The notes under the pieces are model-generated. The model searched no databases. It was not told the origin of the DNA and worked only from the letters and a program-made list of their open reading frames with translations. DNA of 64,000 nt from Escherichia phage MIZ4. Positions 729-55,150 of the stretch are shown piece by piece (the stretch's first letter is position 1; every line of letters starts with the position of its first letter). The DNA is taken from the sequence record OR167180; one strand, 5' to 3'. The translations under genes were made by a program, and so were the position numbers.

Positions 729-764
729 TGGGTGTATTATGCTATACACCCGATCCGTTGTCAA
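729..764 (-). promoter_or_regulatory. sigma70-like early promoter with palindrome (PeSL-like cassette)
   Basis: minus strand TTGACA (759-764), CATAAT (736-741); palindrome GGGTGTAT/ATACACCC 729-750; RBS and start of CDS 402..689 downstream. Confidence 0.5.
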
Positions 765-770
765 CACTTT

Positions 771-1064
771 TTATAAAATAATTTTTTGATATTTTTCTAT
801 GATGTTTGTGTAGGTCACATCAACCGCTAGCACCGTTGCTTCGAATCCACCGTTTAGCCAATGGCTATGATCATGATCGTGAAAGAAACCTAGACCAGTA
901 CGAAGACCTTCTTTATATTCGGCGCGTACATTCAGTTTGTCGTCGATAAACAGATAAAACCATGAATTTTTACTAGGATTGATGATACAACCTTTCAGAT
1001 TAGGGAGAATATCACGACTAAGAATAAACTTATCACCTACTTTGAACATAATATTAGTCCTCAC
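771..1064 (-). CDS. HxHW family paralog 2
   Basis: ORF track; FFHDHDHSHW ... VLAVDV. Confidence 0.55.
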   Translation of the reverse strand: MRTNIMFKVGDKFILSRDILPNLKGCIINPSKNSWFYLFIDDKLNVRAEYKEGLRTGLGFFHDHDHSHWLNGGFEATVLAVDVTYTNIIEKYQKIIL

Positions 1065-1374
1065 TTATAAGGTCAAACCAATTGTTTTTAGCATAATGCT
1101 TAATGCGTGCTTGATCTGCTTCCGCTGGTGATAGATTCCATGCAACCACTACAACTTCTGACGCATCGTCATCAGTTTCTGATACCCAATGATTGTGATT
1201 CATACAGTTATTTGCTATCGAGTGAGCAAATGATTTCATCACTGGAGACGTATAATCATAGTAACGGATTTTCAGATTTTCATCAACATACAAGTAGATC
1301 GTATACGGCTTATATTCAGTAACCAGTAACAGACAGTTACGCAATTCTGGGAAAATCTTTTTAGTTAATTTCAT
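1054..1374 (-). CDS. HxHW family paralog 3 (divergent C-terminal motif)
   Basis: ORF track; YLYVDENL ... NHNHW. Confidence 0.5.
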   Translation of the reverse strand: MKLTKKIFPELRNCLLLVTEYKPYTIYLYVDENLKIRYYDYTSPVMKSFAHSIANNCMNHNHWVSETDDDASEVVVVAWNLSPAEADQARIKHYAKNNWFDLISED

Positions 1375-1576
1375 ATTCTAGTTCTCCGTAATACACGGTA
1401 ATCCATTTTTCTTCATACTTTGTATCTTTCCAACACACAATCCCGTTTACTGTGCAATCTTTGGAATTGACGAATGATTCATATTGTTCCGCATCTTCCA
1501 TCATTTCATGAGCGGTCTTTTCATCGAATATATCGCAGATCGCTTTATATGCTCGATAATCTTTAAATTTGCTCAT
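1361..1576 (-). CDS. hypothetical small protein, tandem paralog of 1579..1788
   Basis: ORF track; both begin MSKFKDY(R/K)AY and share MMEDA, GIV(C/S)WK(D/E)T; start trimmed to the Met matching the paralog. Confidence 0.5.
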   Translation of the reverse strand: MSKFKDYRAYKAICDIFDEKTAHEMMEDAEQYESFVNSKDCTVNGIVCWKDTKYEEKWITVYYGELEYEIN

Positions 1577-1578
1577 AA

Positions 1579-1788
1579 TTAACACCACTCAAGAGTTTTT
1601 GAAAACACATCTATCCATTGTTGAGTATATGCGGTTTCTTTCCATGATACAATACCAGTCGAATAATGGTTTTTGTTTCCAGAAAAGGACGGGCATTTTG
1701 ATGCATCTTCCATCATCTTTTCGGCGAACTCTGGTTCGTATACTCGCAAGATCTGTTGATATGCTTTGTAGTCTTTAAATTTGCTCAT
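1579..1788 (-). CDS. hypothetical small protein, tandem paralog of 1361..1576
   Basis: ORF track. Confidence 0.5.
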   Translation of the reverse strand: MSKFKDYKAYQQILRVYEPEFAEKMMEDASKCPSFSGNKNHYSTGIVSWKETAYTQQWIDVFSKTLEWC

Positions 1789-2053
1789 AATCGTTAACTA
1801 CCTTATCAGCTTCTTTTATTGTTTTTACATCAACTGCGATAATACGTAAAGGTTCGTCGAATGTCCACCAATGATCGTGAATATCAGCTTGTGATTTATC
1901 ACCAAAGGAATCACGAATATCATTTTTACATTTATAGCTAATGTGACCGTTATAGTCAACATAAAGGTAATTATCGAAAATCGGCGTTTTTAAGATCATA
2001 CCGAAAAATCTTTCTTTGTGTGTCTTATCCAGCGTTGCAGTAATTCGCATCAT
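1775..2053 (-). CDS. HxHW family paralog 4
   Basis: ORF track; YLYVDYNG ... IHDHWW ... IIAVDV. Confidence 0.55.
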   Translation of the reverse strand: MMRITATLDKTHKERFFGMILKTPIFDNYLYVDYNGHISYKCKNDIRDSFGDKSQADIHDHWWTFDEPLRIIAVDVKTIKEADKVVNDYEQI

Positions 2054-2065
2054 AATATATTCCTC

Positions 2066-2245
2066 TTAGAAAGGGATGGTCATTTCTTGAGCTTGTACAT
2101 TCTCGTTAGGATTAAACTTCATCCAACCGATATTGTCTACCAGCATATGCACATTTTTATCATATCCTACGTGAGTAGTCAACACTAAATGTGCTTTGCC
2201 TTCAACGATGATTTCCATGTACTTCTGAACTTCGATAGATTTCAT
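2066..2245 (-). CDS. hypothetical small protein (59 aa), below ORF-track cutoff
   Basis: hand-translated minus-strand ORF MKSIEVQKYMEIIVEGKAHL...; GGAGA RBS upstream; sits directly downstream of promoter cassette 2272..2306. Confidence 0.4.
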   Translation of the reverse strand: MKSIEVQKYMEIIVEGKAHLVLTTHVGYDKNVHMLVDNIGWMKFNPNENVQAQEMTIPF

Positions 2246-2271
2246 TTTGATTCTCCGTTTGTTGTCTTGGT

Positions 2272-2306
2272 GGGAGTATCTTACTACTCCCTTTAATCAT
2301 TGTCAA
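2272..2306 (-). promoter_or_regulatory. early promoter with palindrome GGGAGTA-N6-TACTCCC
   Basis: minus strand TTGACA (2301-2306), N17, TAAGAT (2278-2283); palindrome spans the -10. Confidence 0.5.
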
Positions 2307-2309
2307 CGA

Positions 2310-2477
2310 TTATTTGTTAATTTCTGGTGCGTTGCTAGGATAGTAACCTTCTTTAACACCCAGATATTTTGCAACCATTCCGGTGATCTTCTGTGCTACT
2401 ACGATATCGAATTTCAGGTAGTCTTCACCGTGGTTTGCTACAATGTATGCTTCGCATTCTGCTTTAGTCTGGAACAT
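2310..2477 (-). CDS. hypothetical small protein (55 aa)
   Basis: ORF track 2310..2543 trimmed to internal ATG 2475-2477 with AGGAGA RBS; the track N-terminus reads through the promoter cassette. Confidence 0.45.
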   Translation of the reverse strand: MFQTKAECEAYIVANHGEDYLKFDIVVAQKITGMVAKYLGVKEGYYPSNAPEINK

Positions 2478-2511
2478 TTTTGATTCTCCTATATCTCGTT
2501 GGTATGTGTGT

Positions 2512-2540
2512 AGTATAGGGGATCGGTGATCCCCTGTCAA
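2512..2540 (-). promoter_or_regulatory. early promoter, spacer is the palindrome GGGGATCACCGATCCCC
   Basis: minus strand TTGACA (2535-2540), 17-nt palindromic spacer, TATACT (2512-2517). Confidence 0.55.
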
Positions 2541-2548
2541 CAACTTTT

Positions 2549-2857
2549 TTATTCTTCATCTTCATTTTTATCTTTATATGCGTACTTCATAAATTTGTCT
2601 GCTACTTTGTCCGCGTTTTCAGGTTCTACGTCTGACGCTAGGACAACAGCTAGTTCGGTTTTGTCGTTTCCATCATACCAATGATTATGAGTGTCGTTTT
2701 CTTCGATATAAAACGAATCATTTGGAGTTGTGCGACAATATACGTCTAAATTCCCATCGATATAAAAGATCCAATCCGAATACAAAATGATTGCTTTAGC
2801 CAGATTTTTATTGTCTCTTACAAAAGGTTCCGCGACAAATAGCTTAGTTTGTTCCAT
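2549..2857 (-). CDS. HxHW family paralog 5
   Basis: ORF track 2549..2914 trimmed to Met with GAGGA RBS; FYIDGNL ... THNHW ... LAVVLASDV. Confidence 0.5.
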   Translation of the reverse strand: MEQTKLFVAEPFVRDNKNLAKAIILYSDWIFYIDGNLDVYCRTTPNDSFYIEENDTHNHWYDGNDKTELAVVLASDVEPENADKVADKFMKYAYKDKNEDEE

Positions 2858-2873
2858 AATATTTTCCTCAAAA

Positions 2874-3065
2874 TTATACAGCTTCGTAAACTTCCCAATG
2901 TTCAGCGCCAACACGCTTAACGAAAAGGTTTTCTTTGATGTTATTCATAAACGCCTGGATGGATTTAATGCGGTTGGAAGGTTTCCAGTCTTCGTTGGCA
3001 TTGCGGCGATACATAATAACATTACCAGTTCGCTTATATTCAGCAACCATTTTAAGACCACACAT
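2874..3065 (-). CDS. hypothetical small protein (63 aa)
   Basis: ORF track; GAGGA RBS upstream. Confidence 0.45.
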   Translation of the reverse strand: MCGLKMVAEYKRTGNVIMYRRNANEDWKPSNRIKSIQAFMNNIKENLFVKRVGAEHWEVYEAV

Positions 3066-3122
3066 AATATTATCCTCAATTTGTGGGAGAGTATTACCCC
3101 TCCCAATGAATGTTATGTTATA

Positions 3123-3443
3123 TCACACAAAATGGCGTGTCAATGCTTCTTTTGCGGTTCCGCTAAGACTTTCGATCTCGCCTGGCATAACATCAACCGC
3201 CAGAACTTCTACAACATCCTCGGACCCTAACCAGTGAGTATGACCTTTGTAGAACTTGATAACCAGACTACCTTCCTCGTCCCATTTAACGCTATCGCTA
3301 GCCCACCACACATCACCGTCGATAAAGTTGATGTAAAGCACACTACGCCACATTGAATTAATTACTTTCAATACTGCGCCTTTCATCTCTTCCACGGTAT
3401 GGTCTTCCATTTTGAAGACCTCACCTACCCGAACTTTTGCCAT
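3123..3443 (-). CDS. HxHW family paralog 6
   Basis: ORF track; YINFIDGDV ... GHTHW ... VLAVDV. Confidence 0.55.
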   Translation of the reverse strand: MAKVRVGEVFKMEDHTVEEMKGAVLKVINSMWRSVLYINFIDGDVWWASDSVKWDEEGSLVIKFYKGHTHWLGSEDVVEVLAVDVMPGEIESLSGTAKEALTRHFV

Positions 3444-3460
3444 TTAGTCACCTCTCTTTA

Positions 3461-3640
3461 TTACATAACAATCACGCCAGCCGTTGAAAGTTGATGTTTC
3501 AACTGAGCATTTTCTGCTACCGTCAAATCAATGATTTCTTGTGACGCTGCAATCATATATCCATTGGTGATATTGTTTTGCATCAGTTCAATGGTTTCTT
3601 CGTTGTAGCGGATTTTAGCGATGATTTCGTTGAAGTTCAT
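3461..3640 (-). CDS. hypothetical small protein (59 aa)
   Basis: ORF track 3461..3706 trimmed to internal ATG 3638-3640 with AGGAGA RBS; track N-terminus lies in the promoter cassette. Confidence 0.45.
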   Translation of the reverse strand: MNFNEIIAKIRYNEETIELMQNNITNGYMIAASQEIIDLTVAENAQLKHQLSTAGVIVM

Positions 3641-3674
3641 GATTGATTCTCCTAGTTCGTTTCGGTATGTGTGT

Positions 3675-3703
3675 AGTATAGGGGATCGGTGATCCCCTGT
3701 CAA
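3675..3703 (-). promoter_or_regulatory. early promoter, palindromic spacer GGGGATCGGTGATCCCC
   Basis: identical to cassette 2512..2540. Confidence 0.55.
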
Positions 3704-3711
3704 CAACTTTT

Positions 3712-4023
3712 TTAAAGTTTTTCCATGATAACGGTCATAATTACATCTTCTGCGCGAGCGGTCAGATTATCAGCGTCAGGATGTGGGCGGTTGGTTGTTA
3801 CAGAGATAACACCGTTGCGCACTGGTTTGATATTGATATCAAGATGATCCGCGAAACGTTCGCCATTTACAGAATGAATTTTGGTGTTAAATTCTTTTGC
3901 CAGTGCCTTGCGAACTTCACGAATCAGGGTAGCGTTTTTCAGTTGGTTCTCCGCGCTCATGGTCTTCTGGGTGTTCATGGTTCCGTCGAAGTCAATCATT
4001 GGCAGCGTTACGATGTATTTCAT
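3712..4023 (-). CDS. hypothetical small early protein; paralog of 402..689
   Basis: ORF track. Confidence 0.5.
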   Translation of the reverse strand: MKYIVTLPMIDFDGTMNTQKTMSAENQLKNATLIREVRKALAKEFNTKIHSVNGERFADHLDINIKPVRNGVISVTTNRPHPDADNLTARAEDVIMTVIMEKL

Positions 4024-4069
4024 TTTTGATTCTCCGTTTAAGAAAGTGTGTTTCGTTTTGATGTGTGTA

Positions 4070-4098
4070 TTATAAGGGGATCACCGATCCCCTGTCAA
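4070..4098 (-). promoter_or_regulatory. early promoter, palindromic spacer (third copy of GGGGATC-N3-GATCCCC)
   Basis: minus TTGACA (4093-4098), palindrome 4076-4092, TTATAA (4070-4075). Confidence 0.5.
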
Positions 4099-4110
4099 CA
4101 ACTTTTTGGA

Positions 4111-4587
4111 TTATTTTTCTTGATGCTCGCGCTCATACTTTTCGAAATAAAATTCTACTGGCTGATCGTGGATTGAAAGCAAGCCAAAGCGTTTAGCCGC
4201 TCGCAATCCCATATTGCGCTGAATGTACTTCTGGAAGTTCTCTCGTATACACTTACGCCAGTATTCTAAGCCCATACAGCTTTTATAAAGATTGCATTGT
4301 ACACACGCCGGATTCATGTTATCAAGTATATCATGTTCCGGTTTATGCATTCCTACAACCTTATACTTCCACGATCCATCATCATTACGGGCAATTCGTC
4401 CATTTTCATCATAGACTACCTTTGAGCGTCGCAATACTGGTTTGATGTGGTCTGCGTGCCAGCGATCCCCTAGTTCCTCGCCACAATAGGCACAACGTCC
4501 ACCGTATTTCATTTTCAGGATCTGGCGTTGCTCTTTCTTTGACAATTTTTTAGGTTTAGGGGCTTTCGCCCCTTCATTATCACACAT
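4111..4587 (-). CDS. HNH endonuclease (free-standing, homing-endonuclease-like)
   Basis: ORF track; CAYCGEEL..HADHIKPV ... N..CVQCN..K His-Me finger pattern. Confidence 0.7.
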   Translation of the reverse strand: MCDNEGAKAPKPKKLSKKEQRQILKMKYGGRCAYCGEELGDRWHADHIKPVLRRSKVVYDENGRIARNDDGSWKYKVVGMHKPEHDILDNMNPACVQCNLYKSCMGLEYWRKCIRENFQKYIQRNMGLRAAKRFGLLSIHDQPVEFYFEKYEREHQEK

Positions 4588-6082
4588 CGAATACCTCTTT
4601 TACTGTATTTGCTGTGGTCTTGTCGTAGCGAATACGTTTGATGATTGGGAGAAATAAAGAGAACTCCGGTTCATCTTCTTTACGTGATTTGCTGCGAATG
4701 TACCCGTTGCATGTCATCTCAATGACTTTTCCAATCAGGTTATGACGGTCAGCCCATAACATTTCTCGGTCGAGTTCATTTCGACGATCGAACGGAATTA
4801 CACGTTCGATACCATCATCACCTTTTTCGGTTGTGGTGTCGGTTAATCCCGATCCGGTATTAGTCATCATTCGTCCGCACGCACTACGGACAGTAAAACC
4901 GCCTACCTTATTAGGATCTTTACTATGCGGATATACATCAACAATTTCCGCGTCGAAGTCAATAACTTCTTTAAATTTAACCTGATCTTTACTACGGCGA
5001 TCTTCAAATACACCATGTAAATTTTTAAGGATAATACCTTCTAAGCCCATGTTGACATAACGATGATATACTTCGCGAGCTTCATCGATATTGTTAACTA
5101 CGGTATTTTCGATTATCTGAACACGAGGATCGTTAAGTTCTTCAACAATCTGTTTTAGTTCTTCGAATCGATCTTTATATTGCTTCGTTGCTTTCTCGTT
5201 TCCGTAATACACATCACGGTCGATAACATCCCAGACAGTGTAAACAATACATTGGGCTTCTTCTTTTGGAATAGTTCCTTTCAGTGATTTGTTGAGGATA
5301 CCATTTCCGGTCTGACGATCTGCAACAACGGATTCTTTCACCGCTTCCGCTACTGGCGTTAATGGCATTTCCTCTTCTTCAAATATCCATGACAGAGTAC
5401 CATCATAAACGCTCTCAACGAAGTTCTGCGCTGGTGTTTGCGAAAGGGTAGGCATATATACCAATTCGCCATCTAGAACAATTCCACGGCCTCGTAGACG
5501 CTCTAAAACCGCAAACAAATCATCAAGCCCTTGATAGGTATTACCTGAACGGGTATAGATTGATAATGTTTCCCCGTCAATATCAGCCATACCACGAGCG
5601 CCATCGCTTTTAAGTTGTGCATACGCCGGATACTTGATATTAGCAATAGTCTTATCAGAACATGACGATGCCAGGTGGCACGGTTGCTGGGGGATCAGTT
5701 TCTTCCATACCTTGTTTGCAGTGGTAGCGGAACAACCGCATTCCAGGTCACGATTCAGGACCATCATTGCAACTTTAGCATCATCCTCTGACAAGCAAGT
5801 CAGAGTATCGGTAACTAGCTGTAATGCTGCGTTGCCAGTTACTTGACGCGTGGCAAGTTTATTTTTAAAGACCTGTAATGCACCGGATAAAGACAATACA
5901 GACGAATAACGCGATGGTTTATCGTATTTCTTTACGCCAAACGTAACCTGTTTGCAATATGCCAGATAAAAGCATTCTTTCAGCGTTTCATTGCTCGCGG
6001 ATTCTTTCAGAATCTTTTCTTTCAGCGATGTTTTGTCTGTTGCTGCAAGCTGATTAATGATATTAAGAATTGACATTTTCAC
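4580..6082 (-). CDS. 30: ATP-dependent DNA ligase
   Basis: ORF track; KSDGAR adenylation motif; collinear by eye with T4 gp30 (GLEGIILKN, KFKEVID, NTFEDVF-like C-terminus). Confidence 0.92.
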   Translation of the reverse strand: MKMSILNIINQLAATDKTSLKEKILKESASNETLKECFYLAYCKQVTFGVKKYDKPSRYSSVLSLSGALQVFKNKLATRQVTGNAALQLVTDTLTCLSEDDAKVAMMVLNRDLECGCSATTANKVWKKLIPQQPCHLASSCSDKTIANIKYPAYAQLKSDGARGMADIDGETLSIYTRSGNTYQGLDDLFAVLERLRGRGIVLDGELVYMPTLSQTPAQNFVESVYDGTLSWIFEEEEMPLTPVAEAVKESVVADRQTGNGILNKSLKGTIPKEEAQCIVYTVWDVIDRDVYYGNEKATKQYKDRFEELKQIVEELNDPRVQIIENTVVNNIDEAREVYHRYVNMGLEGIILKNLHGVFEDRRSKDQVKFKEVIDFDAEIVDVYPHSKDPNKVGGFTVRSACGRMMTNTGSGLTDTTTEKGDDGIERVIPFDRRNELDREMLWADRHNLIGKVIEMTCNGYIRSKSRKEDEPEFSLFLPIIKRIRYDKTTANTVKEVFDV

Positions 6083-6542
6083 CTCGTTTTGTTAAACGTT
6101 CACGAATATCATTGAGGATACTACAAAATTCCGATTCAGTCAATATAGTCTTTAACGGATCAGTTCCACCTATACTATGACGCAATTTCTTATTTCCGGT
6201 AGCGAGTAATGCTTTACAAAATTCTGGGTTATTCCGTGCCATCGTAACAAATGCCAGATGTACCAGTCTGTAATAATGCTCACTCATTCGATGAATCGGG
6301 CGACCCTGAAAATATAACATGTGATTCTCTATCTTTTCGGTCCTTCCGGTTCTTTTTGCTTTGCCACCGTGCATCAAAAAGATTTCTCTTTGCTTTTCTG
6401 GATTCTTGAATCTTAATCCCTGTAAAAATCCTTCTGTGCTGTTAATATCGCAACCAAATAGACGGAATGGTCTTTTATTGAAATTGCTCAATTCACCCGA
6501 TGGATAAGGTCCACCCGCATAGATATCAATTTCAGAAGTCAT
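6063..6542 (-). CDS. hypothetical protein, possibly NADAR (YbiA-like) domain
   Basis: ORF track; LSNF ... EGFLQGLRF pattern resembles NADAR core; weak. Confidence 0.35.
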   Translation of the reverse strand: MTSEIDIYAGGPYPSGELSNFNKRPFRLFGCDINSTEGFLQGLRFKNPEKQREIFLMHGGKAKRTGRTEKIENHMLYFQGRPIHRMSEHYYRLVHLAFVTMARNNPEFCKALLATGNKKLRHSIGGTDPLKTILTESEFCSILNDIRERLTKRGENVNS

Positions 6543-6696
6543 TGAAACTAATCTCGCTAATCAGAGAGAACGGATCATAATCGTCACTAGGAATATCGAT
6601 AGTAATCGAGTGAGGGTTTACCCATACACCAAACTGGTCTTCTTCGGTGAATACTTCTGTATGGATTTCGTGGATGTTTACATTCATAGTTTTCAT
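6532..6696 (-). CDS. hypothetical small protein (54 aa), below ORF-track cutoff
   Basis: hand-translated MKTMNVNIHEIHTEVFTEEDQFGVW...; RBS AGGAA; overlaps next start. Confidence 0.35.
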   Translation of the reverse strand: MKTMNVNIHEIHTEVFTEEDQFGVWVNPHSITIDIPSDDYDPFSLISEISFNDF

Positions 6697-6747
6697 AATA
6701 AAATTCCTTAATAATCAATAACTTACAAAATCATATAGCCAAAATAT

Positions 6748-6768
6748 AGGCGGGATTATTACCCGCCG
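6748..6768 (-). terminator. hairpin ggcggg/cccgcc then T-rich run on minus strand downstream of gene 31
   Basis: read directly. Confidence 0.45.
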
Positions 6769-6779
6769 TTTAAAAATCA

Positions 6780-7103
6780 TTAACCGTAAACTACCACAAT
6801 ATTCTGTTTGTGCGTTACAGTCCATTTCAGGTCGATCTCTTCTTCCTTCTTAACGCCGTTAATAACGTCTGGATGAGGAACTTTATTCATCTTTCCATGT
6901 GGCAGTAAAACAGTTTTACCCAGCAATTCTTTATCTACCGTCTCGCCAATATCAATAATCTTACCTACCAGCGGAATCTCACCCATAGTGCGCTTTTGCT
7001 CAATAATGATCCCCATAGAGCTTTTTACTTCGGTCCCTGCGCTTTCTGCTTTAGCTTCGATAATTACATAATCACCAAGTGCTTTAGGAGTTTTAACGGT
7101 CAT
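6780..7103 (-). CDS. 31: co-chaperonin (GroES-like) gp31
   Basis: ORF track; size and G(D/E)YV(I/L) ... VPHP pattern like T4 gp31; position next to cd. Confidence 0.75.
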   Translation of the reverse strand: MTVKTPKALGDYVIIEAKAESAGTEVKSSMGIIIEQKRTMGEIPLVGKIIDIGETVDKELLGKTVLLPHGKMNKVPHPDVINGVKKEEEIDLKWTVTHKQNIVVVYG

Positions 7104-7144
7104 AATTTTATTACCTCTTCAAATCAATACAGTTTAATGATGAA

Positions 7145-7465
7145 TTATTTATAAATTTCGACGATCTGCGCTGGAGTCAGCCCGTCTACATTAATCAGAC
7201 TATCAAGCCCAAAACTACGGAAACCTTCAACTGCAATTTCATATACTGGCAAAGATGTTTCTGATTCTTTACGCGGTTTTTCAACATTAGGAACTAACCA
7301 CTTTTCGTATGTTTCGAAAGGCATCAGTGCCGGATCTCGCGTGGCGATCATCTCGCGGACAGTACCATCTTTCTTAGTAAACTGCAAAGAGTAAGTACCG
7401 ACCGAAAACATTTTCTTTAGTGCTTCACGAAGTGCGATATTATCAATTTGTTCGGTCATTATCAA
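7145..7465 (-). CDS. hypothetical protein
   Basis: ORF track. Confidence 0.45.
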   Translation of the reverse strand: MIMTEQIDNIALREALKKMFSVGTYSLQFTKKDGTVREMIATRDPALMPFETYEKWLVPNVEKPRKESETSLPVYEIAVEGFRSFGLDSLINVDGLTPAQIVEIYK

Positions 7466-7958
7466 TACCCTTCAAATCAGTCAATAATGCTTTTGGAATA
7501 CGCGTAACCGTAATGTCGGCTTTATCCAAAATATCAGCCCAATCACGCCCACCATTTCGATCATATGTGTCGCAGTAATATATGTGTTTAATACCACTGT
7601 TTGCAATTGCTTTAGCGCAATCTGGACACGGTGAAGCAGTACACCACATACTAGCGCCTTCAATCGATACACCGCTACGGGCAGCAAACAAAATAGCATT
7701 TAATTCAGCGTGGATCTCGTTTTTCTGTGACCATGCACTATGCTCTGGTCGTTTTTCTGGGATCATTTTGCCGTCATCATCCAGCCAACCGCTTTTATGT
7801 GCATGACAGCTACAGTTTTCTTGCCCTGCTGGAGTGCCGTTAAATCCAGTAGAAATGATTCGCCCGTCTTTTTCGATCAGTGCGCCTACCTTCCACGAAA
7901 CACATTTAGAGTTCTTTGCTATTAGATAGGCGATCTGCATGTAAGTTTGTGACAACAT
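7443..7958 (-). CDS. cd: dCMP deaminase
   Basis: ORF track; HAE zinc-binding and PCxxC motifs (CSCHAHKSG ... HAELNAI ... ASPCPDCAKAI). Confidence 0.9.
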   Translation of the reverse strand: MLSQTYMQIAYLIAKNSKCVSWKVGALIEKDGRIISTGFNGTPAGQENCSCHAHKSGWLDDDGKMIPEKRPEHSAWSQKNEIHAELNAILFAARSGVSIEGASMWCTASPCPDCAKAIANSGIKHIYYCDTYDRNGGRDWADILDKADITVTRIPKALLTDLKGIDNDRTN

Positions 7959-7979
7959 AATATAATCCTCACATATTAA

Positions 7980-8183
7980 TTAACCGTATACGCGAAAGTA
8001 TTCTACTGATCCGTCGCTATACTGTTTTACATTGAATGTATTCACACCATGATTATTTCTCATGATGACATATACACTGCGACGTTCATCGCTAAACGGC
8101 ATAACTGGCGCGGGTTCAATGTCAACACTAAAACCACGTTTAGCAAGTGCTTCTCCTAATTGCTTGAGTTTATCGGTAAACAT
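7980..8183 (-). CDS. hypothetical small protein
   Basis: ORF track. Confidence 0.45.
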   Translation of the reverse strand: MFTDKLKQLGEALAKRGFSVDIEPAPVMPFSDERRSVYVIMRNNHGVNTFNVKQYSDGSVEYFRVYG

Positions 8184-9082
8184 TAAAAGTCTCCGTAGTT
8201 AACCTGAAAACATTCTACACCAATTGAGCGGTACATGTCAACCACTTGATCACGGTCATCTACCGCCAAAACAACATGATAACGCGGTGCAATTTCAGAG
8301 AAGAAAATCTCTTTCTTCACTTCATGATCAGGACGACGATCATTAGTTTCACGTTGAAAGTGATCACTAGGTTCAATACCCTGTTCACGCAGCCATTGCA
8401 GAGTATCTTCTTCGCAAACATCCTCACGCCCTGAGCATGTAATGATACGATAACCATTATCACGATACAGTTTAAGCATTTCGATCACTTGCGGACGCGG
8501 TTTATCTTCTTTGACCTTTGTCCAGTCAAACGGATGACGACCGCCCTTATCCGCTAATGTCCCATCAATATCAAAGATCACTGCCTTTGGCAGCATGGTA
8601 TTCGGTTTGTATACTTCTTGACCCATATATTCCTGCATCAGATAAAATTGGTTACGCAAATGAGAAAGTGGAATTGCTTTCTCGCCGCGATAGAAATTAC
8701 GTTTCTTTAGTGTCTCAAACGGTTCATTGAACACTTGTTCAGTATACACCGCGTTAAATTCTTTTGCAAGTTCTTTATAGAATACACGATGTTTTTCTTT
8801 CAGGTTAGTATCAGAGATAATGATACTTAATCCGCGTGATAGAGTCTCACGAGCAATCATTCTCTGAATAGACTCTACCAGCTTTTCTTTTTCCTTAGTA
8901 TACTTGTATTTCAAATGTGAGTCAACACCAAACAACATAAGACGAAGGTCATCACGATTCACATTACGATAATTACTAAACCGTTTACATGTCTCCATAG
9001 CCCATGTAGTTTTACCGGACCCAGAACAACCAACGGTTAAAATCACTTCACATTTCGGCATTATTTCTCCTTCGGTTTGCAC
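8183..9082 (-). CDS. pseT: polynucleotide 5'-kinase/3'-phosphatase
   Basis: ORF track; P-loop GCSGSGKTT; HAD motif FDIDGTLA; C-terminal VECFQV..GDF like T4 Pnk. Confidence 0.92.
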   Translation of the reverse strand: MQTEGEIMPKCEVILTVGCSGSGKTTWAMETCKRFSNYRNVNRDDLRLMLFGVDSHLKYKYTKEKEKLVESIQRMIARETLSRGLSIIISDTNLKEKHRVFYKELAKEFNAVYTEQVFNEPFETLKKRNFYRGEKAIPLSHLRNQFYLMQEYMGQEVYKPNTMLPKAVIFDIDGTLADKGGRHPFDWTKVKEDKPRPQVIEMLKLYRDNGYRIITCSGREDVCEEDTLQWLREQGIEPSDHFQRETNDRRPDHEVKKEIFFSEIAPRYHVVLAVDDRDQVVDMYRSIGVECFQVNYGDF

Positions 9083-9513
9083 CGTTCCTCATTAAGTTCT
9101 TTTCGATAATAACACATGATCAACTTACTTTCAAGTGTATATCTCTTAATATCCGCAAGCCAGACTCTGAATTTTTGGGAGTCCTCCCACGACATAGAAA
9201 CTCTAGGTTTACCGTCTATTGTATCCACTTTCAGGTCAATGTCAACTTTTTCTATTGGTGCTGGTAGTGGAGGATGTAATTTCGGTTCCTGTGAATAATG
9301 GTCCATTGTACACGAAGAAAGCGCAAATACAATAGGCACAGCGAAGACATGGATTATGGCGGTCTGAAAATTCTTATGTGCTTTCTTAAACATCCAGTGT
9401 ATCACGAAAATTGAAAACACCATCAGGATAATAATGCTTGCACCTATCCACAGATAATCAACCAGATTAAAATGGCTTATCTGCTCTTGTGTAGGCAATA
9501 TTTCTATGCTCAT
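9061..9513 (-). CDS. membrane protein; possible o-spanin-like lipoprotein if an internal start is used
   Basis: ORF track; hydrophobic segments, candidate lipobox ALSSC followed by Pro-rich stretch and conserved Cys. Confidence 0.4.
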   Translation of the reverse strand: MSIEILPTQEQISHFNLVDYLWIGASIIILMVFSIFVIHWMFKKAHKNFQTAIIHVFAVPIVFALSSCTMDHYSQEPKLHPPLPAPIEKVDIDLKVDTIDGKPRVSMSWEDSQKFRVWLADIKRYTLESKLIMCYYRKELNEERCKPKEK

Positions 9514-9833
9514 TTAGTAGCCTCCTTTAATTCTTCGGTAAACTCCTTAAATGAATCATTAAGCTGTTTCTCTACCAACTTGGGTTTTTGTGCTACTACG
9601 TAGCCTCGTGTAGCGTCTTTCATTGCTTTGTTTTGTTCTTCTGTAAACTTAGTTCTTATTCCGTACATCTCCTTTTGTAGTGAGTCTACGACCTTCATCT
9701 TTTCATCGGTCTTTTTCTTATACTCTGTAAATTCCTGATTCAGTCGATCTACCTCCTTTTTATTTTCCCACCACATATTGCCACCTACCCCCAGCAACGC
9801 AGATATGATAACAATGTATATCAGCTTTGACAT
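9510..9833 (-). CDS. membrane-anchored protein with charged helical periplasmic domain; i-spanin-like
   Basis: ORF track 9510..9884 trimmed to ATG 9831-9833 (track N-terminus overlaps terminator hairpin); N-terminal TM then K/E-rich region. Confidence 0.4.
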   Translation of the reverse strand: MSKLIYIVIISALLGVGGNMWWENKKEVDRLNQEFTEYKKKTDEKMKVVDSLQKEMYGIRTKFTEEQNKAMKDATRGYVVAQKPKLVEKQLNDSFKEFTEELKEATK

Positions 9834-9852
9834 ATTACCCCCAACGACAAAA

Positions 9853-9872
9853 GGCGGGGAACTAGCCCCGCT
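9853..9872 (-). terminator. hairpin then TTTTGTCG on minus strand downstream of gene 63
   Basis: read directly. Confidence 0.4.
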
Positions 9873-9877
9873 TATTA

Positions 9878-11047
9878 TTACCAATCAATCTTATCAGCCG
9901 GAATCAGTTTCTTATAATTCCGTAGATAGTAAGTTTTCATTGAATCCAGAATACGGTCATAATCAAGACCATCAAATGCAATCATCAGACACATGAAAAT
10001 ATATGCTTGTGCATCACCATGTTTACGCGATTCGATAGTCGCATTGGACGCATATGTCTTTCTGTCTTCTCCCGCGTGTGCGTTATAAAATTCTGTTGCT
10101 GTCGTAAAGGCATTGCGAAGAATAGACCTGAATGCTTCCTCGAATAGCTCGATTCGTTCCAGTGCTTCCGGTTCTCCTTCATATGCAGCACGCAAATCAT
10201 CGGTTTCGCTTTCTACGACATAGTAGATCAGGTTATTAGGAAACATCGATGTGTTTTTAATGTTATGCACACCAATATACCATTCACTCTTCACTTTGAA
10301 CAGTTGACCGTCTTTAGTGCGTGCAACAATTCCTTCGATACCTTCTGCGGTCCGAACTTCATCAAGAATATTGCTAAAACGCGCTGAATCAACCTGTAAC
10401 GCATTTACCAGATGAGGACGTAGGATTGAATCGGCGAATAGCATTTGATGCGGTACATACTCTCCTGTGACGTTATGGCGTACATTCAGAAGTGTTAGCG
10501 ACGGTTCAGAATATTCTACAACAATTCGGTTGCTGGGTGCTGTATATTCAAAGTTGAAAGTATAATCAGACCCAATATCAGCAATCTTAGCGCGTAGATC
10601 CGCATACTTCTCGGAATACAGAAGACCGTTTGCTCTCTCTGCCTGGCTTGAGTACAAGGCCGCTTTAGACTTCAACTGAACATAGCCGTTATCAATGTAT
10701 GTGCTTACTAGACTACCGTCCATTTTGTCCATGACCATTTCCACATCTTCCGGCTTAAAGCGAGCGCGATCATTCTCACCCAAATTAAAAAACTTCTCCA
10801 TAGGACGAGATGCAATGCGGACAGGTCGGTCTTTATCATCGATTTCAAACATGATCCCGCGACACTCTAACGCATCCGGTTTATTCCATATTTCCGGTTT
10901 GCTCAAGTACAGATAACTAAAAATGCGCATACGGGTTTGCATCGCCGTAATTTCATCTTTGTAATAGAACGTATCAGATCCGTCACATAGTGCCATCAGA
11001 TTTTTGAACAATGCTAAAACTTTTTTGTTGTTTTCTTTTGTTGACAT
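9878..11047 (-). CDS. rnlA: RNA ligase 1
   Basis: ORF track; collinear with T4 gp63 (ALECRGIMFE, VRIASRPMEKFFNL, DGSLVSTY adenylation lysine motif, RKTYA). Confidence 0.92.
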   Translation of the reverse strand: MSTKENNKKVLALFKNLMALCDGSDTFYYKDEITAMQTRMRIFSYLYLSKPEIWNKPDALECRGIMFEIDDKDRPVRIASRPMEKFFNLGENDRARFKPEDVEMVMDKMDGSLVSTYIDNGYVQLKSKAALYSSQAERANGLLYSEKYADLRAKIADIGSDYTFNFEYTAPSNRIVVEYSEPSLTLLNVRHNVTGEYVPHQMLFADSILRPHLVNALQVDSARFSNILDEVRTAEGIEGIVARTKDGQLFKVKSEWYIGVHNIKNTSMFPNNLIYYVVESETDDLRAAYEGEPEALERIELFEEAFRSILRNAFTTATEFYNAHAGEDRKTYASNATIESRKHGDAQAYIFMCLMIAFDGLDYDRILDSMKTYYLRNYKKLIPADKIDW

Positions 11048-11444
11048 AATTTGTGTTCCATTCTGGTTTAAATTTGGTGATCAAAACAGGTTCTTCGATA
11101 TCGGCAGTGCTTATAATATCCTTACCCGTTGGATTCTCAATATATAACTCAAAACACTGGCGGTAATAGAATGTTACTGTCTTACCTTCCTCTAGCGCAT
11201 TATGAATATTCTTACTCTTGCGAGTATCCGCTGTTGGTGTTTGTCTGTTAATGCTAGTCCGGTAATAATTGATCCGCTTTCTGAGATTGACAGTCTGACC
11301 AATGTATACCAGTTCATCATCAACCGCAATAGCGTAAAGAACATTTAAACGGTTTTTCTGAGGCGGTAGAATCACGTCACCATCTTTACACTCTAAACAT
11401 GAATATTTAACGAATCCATAGTTTTCTATTAGCTCATTAATCAT
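10983..11444 (-). CDS. denA: endonuclease II (GIY-YIG family)
   Basis: ORF track; VLYAIAVDDELVYIGQTVNLRKRINYYRT nearly identical in pattern to T4 EndoII. Confidence 0.9.
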   Translation of the reverse strand: MINELIENYGFVKYSCLECKDGDVILPPQKNRLNVLYAIAVDDELVYIGQTVNLRKRINYYRTSINRQTPTADTRKSKNIHNALEEGKTVTFYYRQCFELYIENPTGKDIISTADIEEPVLITKFKPEWNTNYVNKRKQQKSFSIVQKSDGTM

Positions 11445-11494
11445 TATCCTTTCCTCACGTCACAACAAAGGCGGGATTTCTCCCGCCCACCTTA

Positions 11495-11893
11495 TTAACT
11501 TTCCAGAATATCGCGAGCTTCGTTACGCTCCTTGATGATTTTCAGGACAAATTCCAGTTTTTCTTTGTTTAGTGTTCCGTTTTCCATTGCTTCTTTGACG
11601 GTAAACACTCCGCCACCTTGCCCGTATACAGTGACAGTGATTTCACCTAACATCGTGGTATGAAAACCGCCAATTTTCGGTGATTCGAAAGAAACAATTA
11701 CCTCGCGGACAGTATTACCGTCGTTGATTTCTGAGAGGGTAATGTCGTTTTTGTAGGCGGTTGCTTTAACCATACGGATCAGCATAGTCTGATCTGGGGA
11801 GATGGTCATTTTGTCCATTGCATGTTGCAATGCAGCGTAACCGAAAACTTTAACGAAGTCCAGAACGTCTTTGCGAGTTTGAAATTTAATCAT
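11495..11893 (-). CDS. hypothetical protein
   Basis: ORF track; AGGAG RBS. Confidence 0.5.
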   Translation of the reverse strand: MIKFQTRKDVLDFVKVFGYAALQHAMDKMTISPDQTMLIRMVKATAYKNDITLSEINDGNTVREVIVSFESPKIGGFHTTMLGEITVTVYGQGGGVFTVKEAMENGTLNKEKLEFVLKIIKERNEARDILES

Positions 11894-11920
11894 CTTGATA
11901 CTCCTTAGTTGTTTTGGTAT

Positions 11921-11955
11921 GGGAGTATCTTACTACTCCCGTGATATGCTGTCAA
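11921..11955 (-). promoter_or_regulatory. early promoter with palindrome GGGAGTA-N6-TACTCCC
   Basis: minus TTGACA (11950-11955), N17, TAAGAT (11927-11932). Confidence 0.5.
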
Positions 11956-11963
11956 CTGCTTTT

Positions 11964-12113
11964 TTATGCAACCGCAAACATCAACATTTGAACATTCTTG
12001 GCTGTCTGGCTTTCAAAGTTCTGACATTCTTTGATAATGTCCTCTACTTTCTCGCCGGAGATCTCCGCGTAAGTTTCGATTGCCATTTTCAGTACCGCGT
12101 CAAAGTTGCTCAT
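11964..12113 (-). CDS. hypothetical small protein (49 aa), below ORF-track cutoff
   Basis: hand-translated MSNFDAVLKMAIETYAEISGEKVEDIIKECQNFESQTAKNVQMLMFAVA; AAGGAG RBS. Confidence 0.4.
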   Translation of the reverse strand: MSNFDAVLKMAIETYAEISGEKVEDIIKECQNFESQTAKNVQMLMFAVA

Positions 12114-12140
12114 TTGATTCTCCTTAAAGTGTATTTCGTT

Positions 12141-12461: not shown

Positions 12462-12468
12462 CTACTTT

Positions 12469-47704: not shown

Positions 47705-47729
47705 ATAAGTCAACCTTTTGTTTTCGATG

Positions 47730-47764
47730 GGGACATTATGATATATCCCCGATCCAGTGTCAAC
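47730..47764 (-). promoter_or_regulatory. early promoter with palindrome GGGGA...TCCCC
   Basis: minus TTGACA (47759-47764). Confidence 0.4.
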
Positions 47765-47770
47765 AGATTT

Positions 47771-48070
47771 TTAATCTTTTTTCAGTGCATCCATTACTCG
47801 CTCTGCGATCAGTTCTCGTAAGCACTGATAACCATGATATTTGATGGCAATGTCACGCAGATCATTAACCAGTTCCCGTACTTCATGGTCTTTCAGATCG
47901 TCTCTGTATTTCGATTTAACCGTGTCTTTAGGTGGATTGCGGATAACCTGAAAACCTTGTTCTGCAATCACTGCGGCTTCGCGCTGGCGTTCATGTTGTA
48001 CTGTATTTTTGATCAGGTCTGCTTCCATGAACTTTGCCATACTCATCATCATGTTATTCTTTTTGCTCAT
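47771..48070 (-). CDS. hypothetical protein (99 aa)
   Basis: ORF track 47771..48151 trimmed to Met with GAGGA RBS. Confidence 0.45.
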   Translation of the reverse strand: MSKKNNMMMSMAKFMEADLIKNTVQHERQREAAVIAEQGFQVIRNPPKDTVKSKYRDDLKDHEVRELVNDLRDIAIKYHGYQCLRELIAERVMDALKKD

Positions 48071-48104
48071 TATTAAATCCTCATAAAAGAAAAGGGAGAC
48101 TCCC

Positions 48105-48132
48105 ATTATAGAGAATCTCCCTTGTCTGTCAA
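48105..48132 (-). promoter_or_regulatory. early promoter TTGACA-N16-TATAAT
   Basis: both hexamers are exact consensus on the minus strand. Confidence 0.55.
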
Positions 48133-48135
48133 GTG

Positions 48136-53454: not shown

Positions 53455-53768
53455 TATCCTAAAATCCTCACCTTGCGAACACAGATAGTATTGAGTTCTC
53501 GCCGTACCCGTTCTTTTTCATATTCAGGAATTTTGTATTCTATACCATCCCGAACAATTTCAGAAGACCGGATTATACCAAATTTTCTTTTAGGCACAAC
53601 CTTGTATTTCGGTTCACCTGCTAATAGACTCTCACAATAATCTATCTGATCACACATTGACGCTAACGCAGCATCATGTGTTTCGCAAGTTAGGACGCGA
53701 CCTTTCGCGTCCACTGAGTATTGAAAGAATCCGTCTTTATCACGATAACATACAGCAAATACATGCAT
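53454..53768 (-). CDS. hypothetical protein
   Basis: ORF track. Confidence 0.45.
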   Translation of the reverse strand: MHVFAVCYRDKDGFFQYSVDAKGRVLTCETHDAALASMCDQIDYCESLLAGEPKYKVVPKRKFGIIRSSEIVRDGIEYKIPEYEKERVRRELNTICVRKVRILG

Positions 53769-54523
53769 TATAAACCTACCTTCGCTTTCATCAATTCAAT
53801 CCACGACGCATCAATCGGAAGCCCGTATTTCACGCGTTCTTTTTGTGCTGGCGTTAAGTTCTCATACTTAGAAAGAGATTCAATCAAAACGCTGGTATAT
53901 TTTAGCACGATTTCGGTATTGTTTGCAATAGCCTTAAGTTTTTCTTCTTTCTTGTTGATTTCGCTAAGGGCTTGCTTGAGATCTGCAATTTTCTGATAAC
54001 GTTCTTCCATACGGAAGAGAGTATTTTTAATCGCTCGCTCGGCTGCCTCTGCTTTCTCCGGTTCGTTGTGCTTTTTGTGGCGCTCGATTGCTAATTTCTT
54101 TTCTTCGATTGCCAGTTCCTGATTTTTGATTCGATTCTCGTTAAGTTCGATCCACTCGATGTACTTCGCACGTAGGGCAATTTCATCATCAGAAAGTTTA
54201 CCGTTAGTTCCTAGTTCCTGGATCTCTTTAAGAGATTCGATAGTGTGATTGCCACGGAAAGAATTATATTTCAGTTTAACCGGAATTACATTGCCATCAA
54301 CATATCCCAGATTGCAATCAATGCGCTCTAAGGATAGTCCATCATCACCTTCACCGAAAGCCTCACCGGAATAGGCGCAATGAGTCTGTCGGTAAATGTT
54401 ACGCACAGTGACTAAGCTCATAGAGAAGTCTTTGTTGCGACGTGAAGCACCAGCCATGATAGAGTTCAGCCGGAAAACAACCAGCGCCAATTCTTCGTTA
54501 GATTTAAAAGCAAACAGTTTCAT
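53768..54523 (-). CDS. hypothetical protein with coiled-coil C-terminus (T4 srd position)
   Basis: ORF track; position downstream of dda; E/K-rich heptad-like C-terminal half. Confidence 0.4.
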   Translation of the reverse strand: MKLFAFKSNEELALVVFRLNSIMAGASRRNKDFSMSLVTVRNIYRQTHCAYSGEAFGEGDDGLSLERIDCNLGYVDGNVIPVKLKYNSFRGNHTIESLKEIQELGTNGKLSDDEIALRAKYIEWIELNENRIKNQELAIEEKKLAIERHKKHNEPEKAEAAERAIKNTLFRMEERYQKIADLKQALSEINKKEEKLKAIANNTEIVLKYTSVLIESLSKYENLTPAQKERVKYGLPIDASWIELMKAKVGL

Positions 54524-54540
54524 AATTGATTCTCCTTAGT

Positions 54541-54581
54541 TGGCATGTGTGTATTATTGTCTATCTGGTTTGTGCTGTCAA
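54541..54581 (-). promoter_or_regulatory. early promoter (TTGACA)
   Basis: read directly. Confidence 0.4.
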
Positions 54582-54584
54582 CAC

Positions 54585-55088
54585 TTAAATTAAAGAAAAT
54601 TTGTAAATCTCTATCAGATCGCCATTACACGCGTAAACTTCCTCGATCTCATCAAGGATCATGGTCGTCCCTGTCTTGTATATGCACTCGCGCTCATCTG
54701 CCAACATAGCATACAAAGACAGTCGAGTAGTCGGATTGTCATACTCTTTAGACACCACTCGGTCAATAGCATGTTCGTAATAATTCATGCAAGGCTTGGT
54801 AGGTTTTATTGCAATAATCTTTCCTGTTGCATAAACATCGGTTGCAAAGTCCTCTGCTGTTGATTGCAGTGGCGTAAAGCTCATAGGACGCTCTACAACG
54901 AAAGAATCACCTACAATTAAGGTATCCAGCTTACGACCTTCTCTTTTGCTCACACCGCGATACAAGGCTTCATGATGCACTAACCGCTCAGTCTTTTCAA
55001 TCAATCCATTAAGGATCGACATATCGATATTTTCTTTAGAGTTCATCACCTCATCAATGATGTTAAGTTCTTCTGGTGTAAATTGCAT
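54585..55088 (-). CDS. hypothetical protein; possible mono-ADP-ribosyltransferase (T4 modA/modB position)
   Basis: ORF track; candidate R (LYRG), S-T and ExE (DERE) motifs; weak. Confidence 0.3.
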   Translation of the reverse strand: MQFTPEELNIIDEVMNSKENIDMSILNGLIEKTERLVHHEALYRGVSKREGRKLDTLIVGDSFVVERPMSFTPLQSTAEDFATDVYATGKIIAIKPTKPCMNYYEHAIDRVVSKEYDNPTTRLSLYAMLADERECIYKTGTTMILDEIEEVYACNGDLIEIYKFSLI

Positions 55089-55121
55089 AATAAAAAAGCC
55101 TCCAATCTTTCGATGGGAGGC

Positions 55122-55150
55122 ATAATAAAACCATTATAGAGTAGTGTCAA
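55122..55150 (-). promoter_or_regulatory. early promoter (TTGACA-N17-TATTAT) followed by GCCTCC/GGAGGC hairpin
   Basis: read directly. Confidence 0.4.

Follow-up and report, generated by a model that had tools for sequence, protein, structure and literature searches.

Promoter and stem-loop cassettes, very probably PeSLs, separate small early genes in the Krischvirus phage MIZ5

PeSLs of phi1 and RB49 and their counterparts in MIZ5

Arbiol, Comeau, Kutateladze, Adamia and Krisch defined promoter-early stem-loop elements (PeSLs) in the coliphages phi1 and RB49 in 2010 (Genome Biol Evol 2:140; PMC2839356). A PeSL comprises an AT-rich tract, a consensus sigma-70 promoter and a stem-loop, followed by the Shine-Dalgarno sequence (SD) and the start codon of the next gene; the stem-loop, often polyG/polyC, can lie between the promoter boxes, overlap one or the other of them, sit upstream, or come immediately after the -10 (PMC2839356). 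The copies number 52 and 51 per genome, mostly in hyperplastic regions ahead of ORFans (PMC2839356). PeSLs are among the few concrete 'linker' elements proposed for the modular evolution of large lytic phages. Each accessory gene receives from them a promoter and insulator of its own, along with homology for shuffling. Here, we describe repeated promoter cassettes in a 64,000-nucleotide (nt) stretch of phage DNA, referred to at its full length as the window, which are very probably the PeSL units that separate small early genes in T4-like phages of the RB49/phi1 type (Krischvirus).

The letters of the window are those of bases 32001-96000 of MIZ5 (OR167181.1, genus Krischvirus; 100% identity by local alignment). 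MIZ5 was deposited in 2023 and is ~96-97% identical to phi1 and RB49; ~55 further RB49-like phages match window bases 1-20000 at 95-99% (megablast). The plus strand of bases 25442-36699 carries tail-fibre genes and a holin, and the rest of the window is transcribed leftward. There are 96 minus-strand coding sequences (CDS), 56 of which encode 120 amino acids (aa) or fewer, and by the phi1 annotation the window carries orthologs of phi1 open reading frames (ORFs) ORF197 to ORF274.

The correspondence to the described elements is close. The phi1 ORF206/ORF205 intergenic sequence (PeSL206/205) equals window 2478-2548 save one A, and the sequence upstream of phi1 ORF210 (PeSL211/210) equals window 4024-4110 save a single substitution. 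In phi1, PeSL206/205 yielded ~13,000 Miller units in a lacZ promoter assay, and the PeSL211/210 stem-loop cut downstream lacZ about as much as rrnB T1 (PMC2839356). ORF210 itself corresponds to window 3712-4023, flanked downstream by the cassette at 3641-3711 and on its other side by that at 4024-4110; it is the published mini-circle locus, at which 400-base-pair (bp) mini-circles were sequenced (PMC2839356). Orthology to these two elements bears out a sequence-only reading of the window, which had likened its promoter cassettes to the PeSLs of RB49-type phages and numbered them at about 20. The cassettes are real, and 23 were counted. As PeSL cassettes, including the idea of a protein recognizing GGGG...CCCC, are contained in the 2010 paper, the finding is correct and already described.

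Every sequence-level defining feature of RB49-type PeSLs is found in the 23 intergenic minus-strand promoter cassettes of the window. Each is ~65-100 bp long and lies in the gap from one leftward gene's stop codon to the start of the gene that follows, the intergenic sequence beginning right after the upstream stop codon. An A-rich UP-like tract comes first (the 12 nt upstream of the -35 read aaaaagttg, aaaaagtag or similar in most cassettes), followed by TTGACA-N16-18-TAnnnT, a conserved leader (ACACACATCGAAAC...) and a strong SD. All 23 promoters match the consensus at 10 or more of 12 positions with a 16-18 nt spacer, and the SD (GGAGAATCAA, GAGGAT or similar) stands 4-10 nt ahead of the annotated ATG in every cassette. 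Stem-loops of the form Gn-loop-Cn, for which five positions are possible, have folding free energies (dG) of -11 to -19 kcal/mol, with -24.5 kcal/mol for the 13-bp stem at 48132; no clear example of a stem-loop overlapping the -35 was found among the window cassettes. The cassettes cluster at 690-4110, 11894-15012 and 39309-40721, amid 'hypothetical protein' CDS of 49-132 aa, as expected of hyperplastic regions, and make up ~43% of the annotated non-coding bases. They precede only 23 of the 96 minus-strand CDS, a minority, so that their placement upstream of most small minus-strand genes, as the sequence-only reading had it, does not hold.

The palindrome is embedded between the -35 and -1 in 13 of the 23 cassettes, filling the spacer in five and straddling the -10 in eight. 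Among the other ten, three have a canonical terminator just upstream (-35 at 12740, 20730 and 40671), three a hairpin in the 5' leader (-35 at 3143, 55150 and 61471), and four a hairpin that is absent or decayed (-35 at 19877, 21842, 39966 and 54581). The individual cassettes are as follows, with hairpins written on the sense strand.

690-770, minus strand: PeSL cassette upstream of CDS 402-689 (phi1 ORF198 ortholog); -35 at 764-759, -10 CATAAT at 741-736; hairpin GGGTGTAT-agcata-ATACACCC at 751-730, straddling the -10
2246-2309, minus strand: PeSL cassette upstream of CDS 2066-2245 (ORF204 ortholog); -35 at 2306-2301, -10 TAAGAT; hairpin GGGAGTA-gtaaga-TACTCCC at 2291-2272, conserved in phi1, JSE, G37-3 and MIZ6
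2478-2548, minus strand: PeSL cassette, phi1 PeSL206/205 ortholog; -35 at 2540-2535, -10 TATACT; the 17-nt spacer at 2534-2518 is GGGGATC-acc-GATCCCC
3066-3143, minus strand: promoter TTGACA-17-TAACAT, -35 at 3143-3138 inside the end of the upstream CDS; leader hairpin GGGAGGG-gtaata-CTCTCCC at 3105-3084 with one G.U, of the subclass downstream of the -10, kept in phi1, RB49, JSE and MIZ6
3641-3711, minus strand: PeSL cassette upstream of CDS 3461-3640 (ORF209 ortholog); spacer GGGGATC-acc-GATCCCC at 3697-3681
4024-4110, minus strand: PeSL cassette, phi1/RB49 PeSL211/210 ortholog; -35 at 4098-4093, 18-nt spacer, -10 TATAAT; palindrome GGGGATC-ggt-GATCCCC at 4092-4076 within the spacer, in loop-inverted form
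11894-11963, minus strand: PeSL cassette upstream of CDS 11495-11893 (ORF225); hairpin GGGAGTA-gtaaga-TACTCCC at 11940-11921
12114-12186, minus strand: PeSL cassette upstream of CDS 11964-12113 (ORF226); hairpin GGGGGTA-gtaata-TACCCCC at 12165-12146, an A-T to G-C compensated stem relative to the GGGAGTA family
12400-12468, minus strand: PeSL cassette upstream of CDS 12181-12399 (ORF227); at 12446-12427 the hairpin GGGGGTA-gtaaga-TACTCCC, which has a single G.U on the sense strand and, in the JSE ortholog, a fully paired TACCCCC arm
12688-12787, minus strand: cassette with upstream canonical terminator AAAGTCGCC-catagt-GGCGACTTT plus T-run at 12778-12755; promoter TTGACA-17-CATAAT, -35 at 12740, with no embedded palindrome
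14945-15012, minus strand: PeSL cassette upstream of CDS 14777-14944 (ORF233); TTGACG, -10 TATAAT; spacer palindrome GCGGGGA-gaaa-TCCCCGC at 14999-14982, identical in 5/5 relatives checked
19819-19877, minus strand: consensus promoter cassette TTGACA-16-TATAAT, -35 at 19877; conserved leader, no significant stem-loop
20650-20792, minus strand: terminator AGCCTCCC-ttcg-GGGAGGCT plus T6 at 20782-20763, then promoter cassette TTGACG-16-TATAAT (-35 at 20730)
21768-21842, minus strand: gene 32 early promoter TTGACA-17-TATAGT, -35 at 21842, no GC stem-loop; in the RB49 RefSeq record, the stretch upstream of gene 32 is labelled 'early RB49 promoter'
39309-39378, minus strand: PeSL cassette upstream of CDS 38550-39308 (ORF262); hairpin GGGAGTA-gtaaga-TACTCCC at 39356-39337
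39592-39660, minus strand: PeSL cassette TTGACG-17-TAACAT; hairpin GGGAGTAT-taac-ATACTCCC at 39639-39618
39904-39972, minus strand: degenerate PeSL TTGACG-17-TATTAT with decayed stem GGTAGTA-tta-TACTCCC, inside a MIZ5-specific segment
40612-40721, minus strand: terminator AAGCCGATC-cttgt-GGTCGGCTT plus T-run at 40712-40690, then promoter cassette TTGACT-17-CATAAT (-35 at 40671)
47705-47770, minus strand: PeSL cassette TTGACA-17-CATAAT; hairpin GGGGATAT-atcata-ATGTCCCC at 47750-47729, one U.G on the sense strand
48070-48135, minus strand: PeSL cassette TTGACA-16-TATAAT; 13-bp stem AAGGGAGATTCTC/GGGAGTCTCCCTT at 48123-48092, its loop being the -10 hexamer, with a T-rich tail after the stem
54524-54590, minus strand: promoter cassette TTGACA-17-AATAAT; conserved leader and SD, no stem-loop
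55089-55157, minus strand: promoter TTGACA-17-TATTAT; leader GCCTCC-N12-GGAGGC plus T6 (55121-55098), containing the SD
61400-61471, minus strand: promoter TTGACA-16-TATAAT, -35 at 61471; leader hairpin GGCGGGTGTTG-ggtga-CGATACCCGCC at 61444-61416, beyond the range of the sequence-only reading

Two palindrome families recur among these cassettes. GGGGATC-N3-GATCCCC occurs at 2518-2534, 3681-3697 and 4076-4092, exactly where the sequence-only reading had placed it, with none expected in shuffled sequence; the acc loop assigned to all three copies is present at 2518 and 3681, the 4076 copy being loop-inverted (ggt on the sense strand) in its 18-nt spacer. The GGGAGTA-N6-TACTCCC family numbers six matches versus 0.07 expected, perfect at 2272, 11921, 39337 and 39619, and with 1-2 mismatches at 12146 and 12427. 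Its positions had been given correctly at 2272, 11921 and 12146; those given as 12423, 39338 and 39618 shift to 12427 (with one G.U), 39337 and 39619, and of two further variants, that at 14982 is the spacer palindrome GCGGGGA-gaaa-TCCCCGC (14982-14999), and that at 47730 is the hairpin at 47729-47750 with one G.U. Every copy of both palindromes lies within an intergenic minus-strand TTGACA-N16-18-TAnnnT promoter. Each spacer-class palindrome carries two GATC sites; GATC (Dam) sites were dropped as a cassette-specific signal, being mildly over-represented across the whole window (338 versus 263±14 in shuffles).

The promoters themselves stand out statistically. Matches to the consensus at 11 or more of 12 positions number 33 on the minus strand and none on the plus strand, compared to 1.1±0.9 in dinucleotide shuffles of the minus strand. 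A strong hairpin between the -35 and ~+5 accompanies 12 of 25 intergenic promoter hits; the proportion is 1 of 48 among coding hits and 4.5% at random positions.

In copy number and kind, the cassettes resemble the PeSLs of phi1 and RB49. The MIZ5 census, taken over bases 1-145000 (the remaining 20.5 kb are mostly annotated plus-strand structural genes), comes to 46 in 145 kb, near the published 52 and 51; architecture and genomic positions are the same, the window cassettes being orthologs of those flanking phi1 ORF198-ORF274. The motifs, when checked at orthologous positions, were found in five relatives. MIZ5 differs in stems and loops at several orthologous sites, e.g. 690-770 and 3641-3711, and has one extra cassette-plus-ORF module at 39674-40177; there is no difference in kind, and MIZ5 adds only these allelic variants and the extra module. 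The PeSLs of T4/PST and KVP40/nt-1 (Comeau, Arbiol and Krisch 2014; PMC4122927) are likewise promoter and stem-loop units in hyperplastic regions with differential ORFs, but their promoters (TTTACW..TAYWAT and TTGYVH..TAWWAT) are unlike the nearly perfect sigma-70 hexamers of the window, and their stems (AGNA-loop-TCNT and A3-4G3-loop-C3T3-4) are AT-richer than the G-clamped window stems (PMC4122927). A search of IMG/VR for the spacer-palindrome promoter by exact pattern returned only two Krischvirus-sized contigs, with no sign of it outside the genus.

Hairpin turnover, terminators and genome breakpoints

Stems were compared among MIZ5 (145 kb), phi1, RB49, JSE, G37-3 and MIZ6. Explicit enumeration was used rather than a single alignment because stem register (pair sums 47 and 49) and loop lengths vary; the RB49 hairpins derive from stem enumeration, not from ortholog extraction. 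Trimming each stem back to a two-pair G-C clamp eliminated the spurious pairing of the -35 ACA with the -10 TAT. A symmetric hairpin search that allowed G.T and A.C equally was rejected; it had returned 16 A.C to 6 G.T, with the A.C pairs coming from stems that extend into the fixed ACA and TAT.

Across the six genomes, 33 distinct GC-clamped stems with loops of 3-6 nt were found. At orthologous sites with identical flanks, the stem sequence changes and the pairing is kept: the stem of cassette 690-770 is GGGTGTAT/ATACACCC in MIZ5 and MIZ6 and the compensated GGGGATAT/ATATCCCC in phi1 and G37-3, and cassette 3641-3711 holds three unrelated palindromes among five phages, between identical flanks. 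MIZ5 and phi1 share the loop acc in cassette 2478-2548; JSE, G37-3 and MIZ6 have ggt there, the exact complement. On trimmed stems, interior transition mismatches on the sense strand number 8 G.T to 1 A.C (one-sided p=0.02); such an excess of G.T is expected if the sense strand folds alone, and not for duplex recognition.

The 17-mer GGGGATCaccGATCCCC (2518-2534 and 3681-3697) and its exact reverse complement with loop ggt (4076-4092) stand as paralogs within the window, and the two forms also alternate between phages at one orthologous site. Both patterns imply loop inversion or patch conversion between cassettes.

Among the 46 promoter and SD cassettes in the 145 kb of MIZ5, 24 have an embedded hairpin, eight an upstream canonical terminator, and none has both. 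An embedded hairpin thus accompanies 0 of 8 cassettes with an upstream terminator versus 24 of 38 without one (hypergeometric p=0.0012); the three upstream-terminator cassettes of the window have no embedded palindrome. This mutual exclusion suggests that the embedded hairpin and the canonical terminator do the same job. The embedded hairpins resemble intrinsic terminators in being GC-rich, in lying just after a stop codon, in excluding true terminators from the same slot, and in stability, with predicted fold energies of -11 to -19 kcal/mol compared to -12.7 to -16.2 kcal/mol for the canonical terminators. Unlike intrinsic terminators, they are superimposed on a promoter and have no U-tract: the 8 nt after the stem contain 0-4 U, versus 6-7 for the three canonical terminators of the window. 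By class, the -10-straddling hairpins have 0-2 U and the spacer hairpins ~3-4, the latter contributed by the -10 box (UAUAAU) itself.

Cassettes also recur at sites where Krischvirus genomes diverge. Structural breakpoints, taken from local alignments to phi1, RB49, JSE and G37-3 (KFS-EC, G2494 and SFHK24 were left out), fall within 17 nt of a cassette at 3063, 4118, 11968, 20650, 21766, 39386 and 39674, and about half of the structural events end so. A 357-bp insertion (ORF211) starts at 4118 in RB49, JSE and G37-3; 11968 is a homology break of JSE; 20650-20680 holds the breakpoint of the phi1/RB49 replacement; an HNH-endonuclease insertion in MIZ5 starts at 21766; phi1 has a 491-bp and RB49 a 208-bp insertion at 39386; and a MIZ5-specific 502-bp segment starts at 39674. 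Megablast homology among Krischvirus genomes ends at 2309, 2475, 2480, 2504, 3643, 4061 and 12189, at or within ~10 nt of a cassette, with both SFHK24 and SSG23 stopping at 12189. Cassette 2478-2548 is mosaic, in that G37-3 joins the ggt loop to a -10 and leader of the MIZ5 type, and JSE and MIZ6 have a different upstream gene; this mosaicism fits a putative exchange between paralogous cassettes. The cassettes predict where Krischvirus genomes will differ.

Arbiol et al. compared PeSLs to integrons (PMC2839356), whose gene cassettes and attC sites share the bracketing of small genes of unknown function by repeated regulatory or recombination elements, reported circular cassette intermediates, and the conservation of hairpin structure rather than sequence. 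Unlike in integrons, no integrase or dedicated recombinase is known for PeSLs, exchange being attributed to homologous recombination over 70-100 bp, and each PeSL cassette brings its own promoter. The difference from lambdoid 'morons' is that the PeSL flanking elements are themselves the proposed vehicles of mobility.

Candidate roles of the hairpin

Taken together, a model for the cassettes emerges in three steps. Host RNA polymerase would fire from each cassette right after infection, starting at the A that follows the CCC of the hairpin 3' arm. The RB49 early-promoter consensus, which is reported to agree with 5'-end mapping of transcripts, has C at -3 to -1 (Nolan et al., PMC1524935); this C run is the CCC of the 3' arm, and therefore the -10-straddling hairpins end at -1, outside their own transcript, like the spacer hairpins. 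Lying upstream of its own start, the palindrome would be transcribed only by polymerases that read through from the upstream unit; the read-through RNA would fold the hairpin (~-11 to -19 kcal/mol) ~15-35 nt past the upstream stop codon, and the hairpin would attenuate or terminate read-through, or at least define and protect the 3' end, insulating neighbouring units. As near-identical direct repeats, the cassettes would then be exchanged by the homologous recombination machinery of the phage, by which genes between cassettes could be deleted, inserted or swapped and the cassettes patch-converted. The first two steps have been shown experimentally for the phi1/RB49 orthologs, and the third by mini-circle polymerase chain reaction (PMC2839356). 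A role of the hairpin as attenuator or 3'-end-defining structure for read-through RNA is a well supported, if predicted, assignment for MIZ5.

Three alternatives have to be weighed against this assignment. The sequence-only reading had also proposed operators, that is, duplex sites at which a dimeric DNA-binding protein, either repressor or activator, would switch the early promoters off or on. The palindromes are perfect inverted repeats that occupy the spacer or overlie the -10, and a protein bound there would occlude RNA polymerase; identical copies recur, and Arbiol et al. speculated on a protein recognizing GGGG...CCCC, though for recombination (PMC2839356). We nonetheless consider operators very improbable: there is no conserved half-site among at least 33 different stems, half-site spacing varies over 3-6 nt and placement among spacer, -10, upstream and leader, and the strand asymmetry of the mismatches is unexpected for a duplex site. 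The palindromes are moreover absent exactly where a canonical terminator is present, which an operator model does not predict, and the replacement of one palindrome by unrelated ones between identical flanks is part of a turnover for which a sequence-specific dimeric protein cannot account. No cognate DNA-binding protein is reported in the PeSL papers, and no candidate was sought in this analysis. Alternatively, the hairpins could be 3'-end stabilizers or processing barriers for the upstream mRNA, rather than terminators, that set segment half-lives in polycistronic early RNA. Their GC-rich stems with U-poor tails, their position 15-35 nt past upstream stop codons and the tolerance of G.U on the sense strand fit such a role, and exclusivity with true terminators fits stabilizer and terminator alike. 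The sole direct test, however, gave a lacZ drop comparable with that of rrnB T1 (PMC2839356), which a pure stabilizer would not produce, making this explanation unlikely.

The palindromes may otherwise act as DNA, with single-strand hairpins or small cruciforms serving as attC-like recognition or initiation sites for cassette exchange and terminator activity being secondary. At orthologous sites the sequence turns over but structure, in the form of perfect symmetry, persists; the G.T bias on the sense strand fits a single-stranded DNA hairpin just as well; orthologs and paralogs show exact inversion of the loop (acc/ggt); breakpoints fall inside cassettes; one published mini-circle crossover mapped within the loop (PMC2839356); and the phage encodes endonuclease VII and SbcCD-like gp46/47. 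Yet the published crossovers lie mostly within the AT-rich tract or in the interval from the -10 to the SD or ATG (PMC2839356), positions that fit plain homologous recombination over 70-100 bp repeats; no recombinase was identified in the PeSL work (PMC2839356); exclusivity with canonical terminators points to an RNA-level role; and the hairpin-less cassettes 19819-19877 and 21768-21842 are also at or near breakpoints. A DNA-level role is thus quite unlikely, as is its more specific form, in which strand-specific single-stranded DNA hairpins would be the exchange signal, independent of a recombinase or within a still-unidentified attC-like system. Intrastrand template-switch 'palindrome correction' could give the same features, keeping the stems perfect without selection.

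Several points weigh against the attenuator and exchange model in turn. With their U-poor tails, the embedded hairpins are not predicted by standard rules to terminate efficiently, and efficient intrinsic termination rests on one published reporter assay of one stem-loop, a spacer-class example (PMC2839356). The excess of G.T amounts to nine mismatches in total and fits RNA and sense-strand single-stranded DNA alike, and the exclusivity test uses a cassette set defined by pattern, in which a few false positives from within genes may be present. Roughly half the structural events lie away from cassettes, namely insertions of homing endonucleases (7126, 14421), one at 3443, replacements at 37105-38907 and tail-fibre swaps. 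Breakpoint enrichment is confounded because whole-gene insertions and deletions must end intergenically and the cassettes take up ~43% of the non-coding bases; over intergenic DNA as such, it is modest. In MIZ5, all three steps derive from sequence statistics and comparison. The additions made here (terminator and hairpin exclusivity, the sense-strand G.U bias and palindrome turnover in six genomes) concern the function of the stem-loop and leave the picture of the PeSLs unchanged.

Gene starts and neighbouring features

In annotating the window, the cassettes serve as markers of true gene starts and of transcription units, and they explain spurious shared N-termini in mechanical ORF calls as well as at least one dubious GenBank start. 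The mechanical ORFs 2310-2543 and 3461-3706 begin at the TTG beside the -35 and both start with MLTGDHRSPILHTY; read-through is shown for these two only. The false shared N-termini that had been claimed for the cassettes at large are thus real for the spacer family and do not extend to the -10-straddling family, where in-frame TAG or TAA codons are present and read-through does not occur.

The GenBank CDS 47771-48106 is a case of a cassette read into an N-terminus in the deposited record. It starts at the ATG of TATAATG, which lies inside the -10 box, upstream of where transcription is predicted to begin; its true start is likely the in-frame ATG 12 codons downstream, preceded by GAGGAT.

The leader at 55089-55157 precedes the RNA polymerase ADP-ribosylase gene, with the SD in the 3' arm of the hairpin and T6 immediately ahead of the ATG, an arrangement suggestive of a leader terminator or translational attenuator and not of an ordinary PeSL.

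Within annotated CDS, 19 of the 33 minus-strand sigma-70 matches at 11 or more of 12 positions are found, without hairpins, and the plus strand has none. Examples have the -35 at 24770, 45190 and 47148 (12/12 matches), 23864, 25327 and 50786. These matches may represent early promoters internal to genes; alternatively, they may reflect strand-specific selection.

Downstream of the promoter at 20730 (19866-20792), the first ORF after the SD ends after ~27 codons; ~300 nt of unannotated sequence follow, and then a CDS for a 182-aa endonuclease. The counterpart in phi1 and RB49 is the single 1.4-kb ORF240, with homology breaking at 19972-20650, and the region is possibly a disrupted or replaced endonuclease gene.

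The DNA polymerase gene (window 61461-64000, continuing into MIZ5 96045-97253) is annotated as two pieces, between which lie 210 nt of non-coding sequence (62868-63077) and the ORF of an HNH endonuclease (63078-63902). No Rfam family matched at gathering score anywhere in the window, and neither a group I intron nor another Rfam family was detected within the window at the split gene. Two gaps annotated as intergenic, 40168-40338 (171 nt) and 56933-57079 (147 nt), are coding-like and free of promoter or terminator features; the latter has many hydrophobic codons. Both gaps may be unannotated small genes or extensions.

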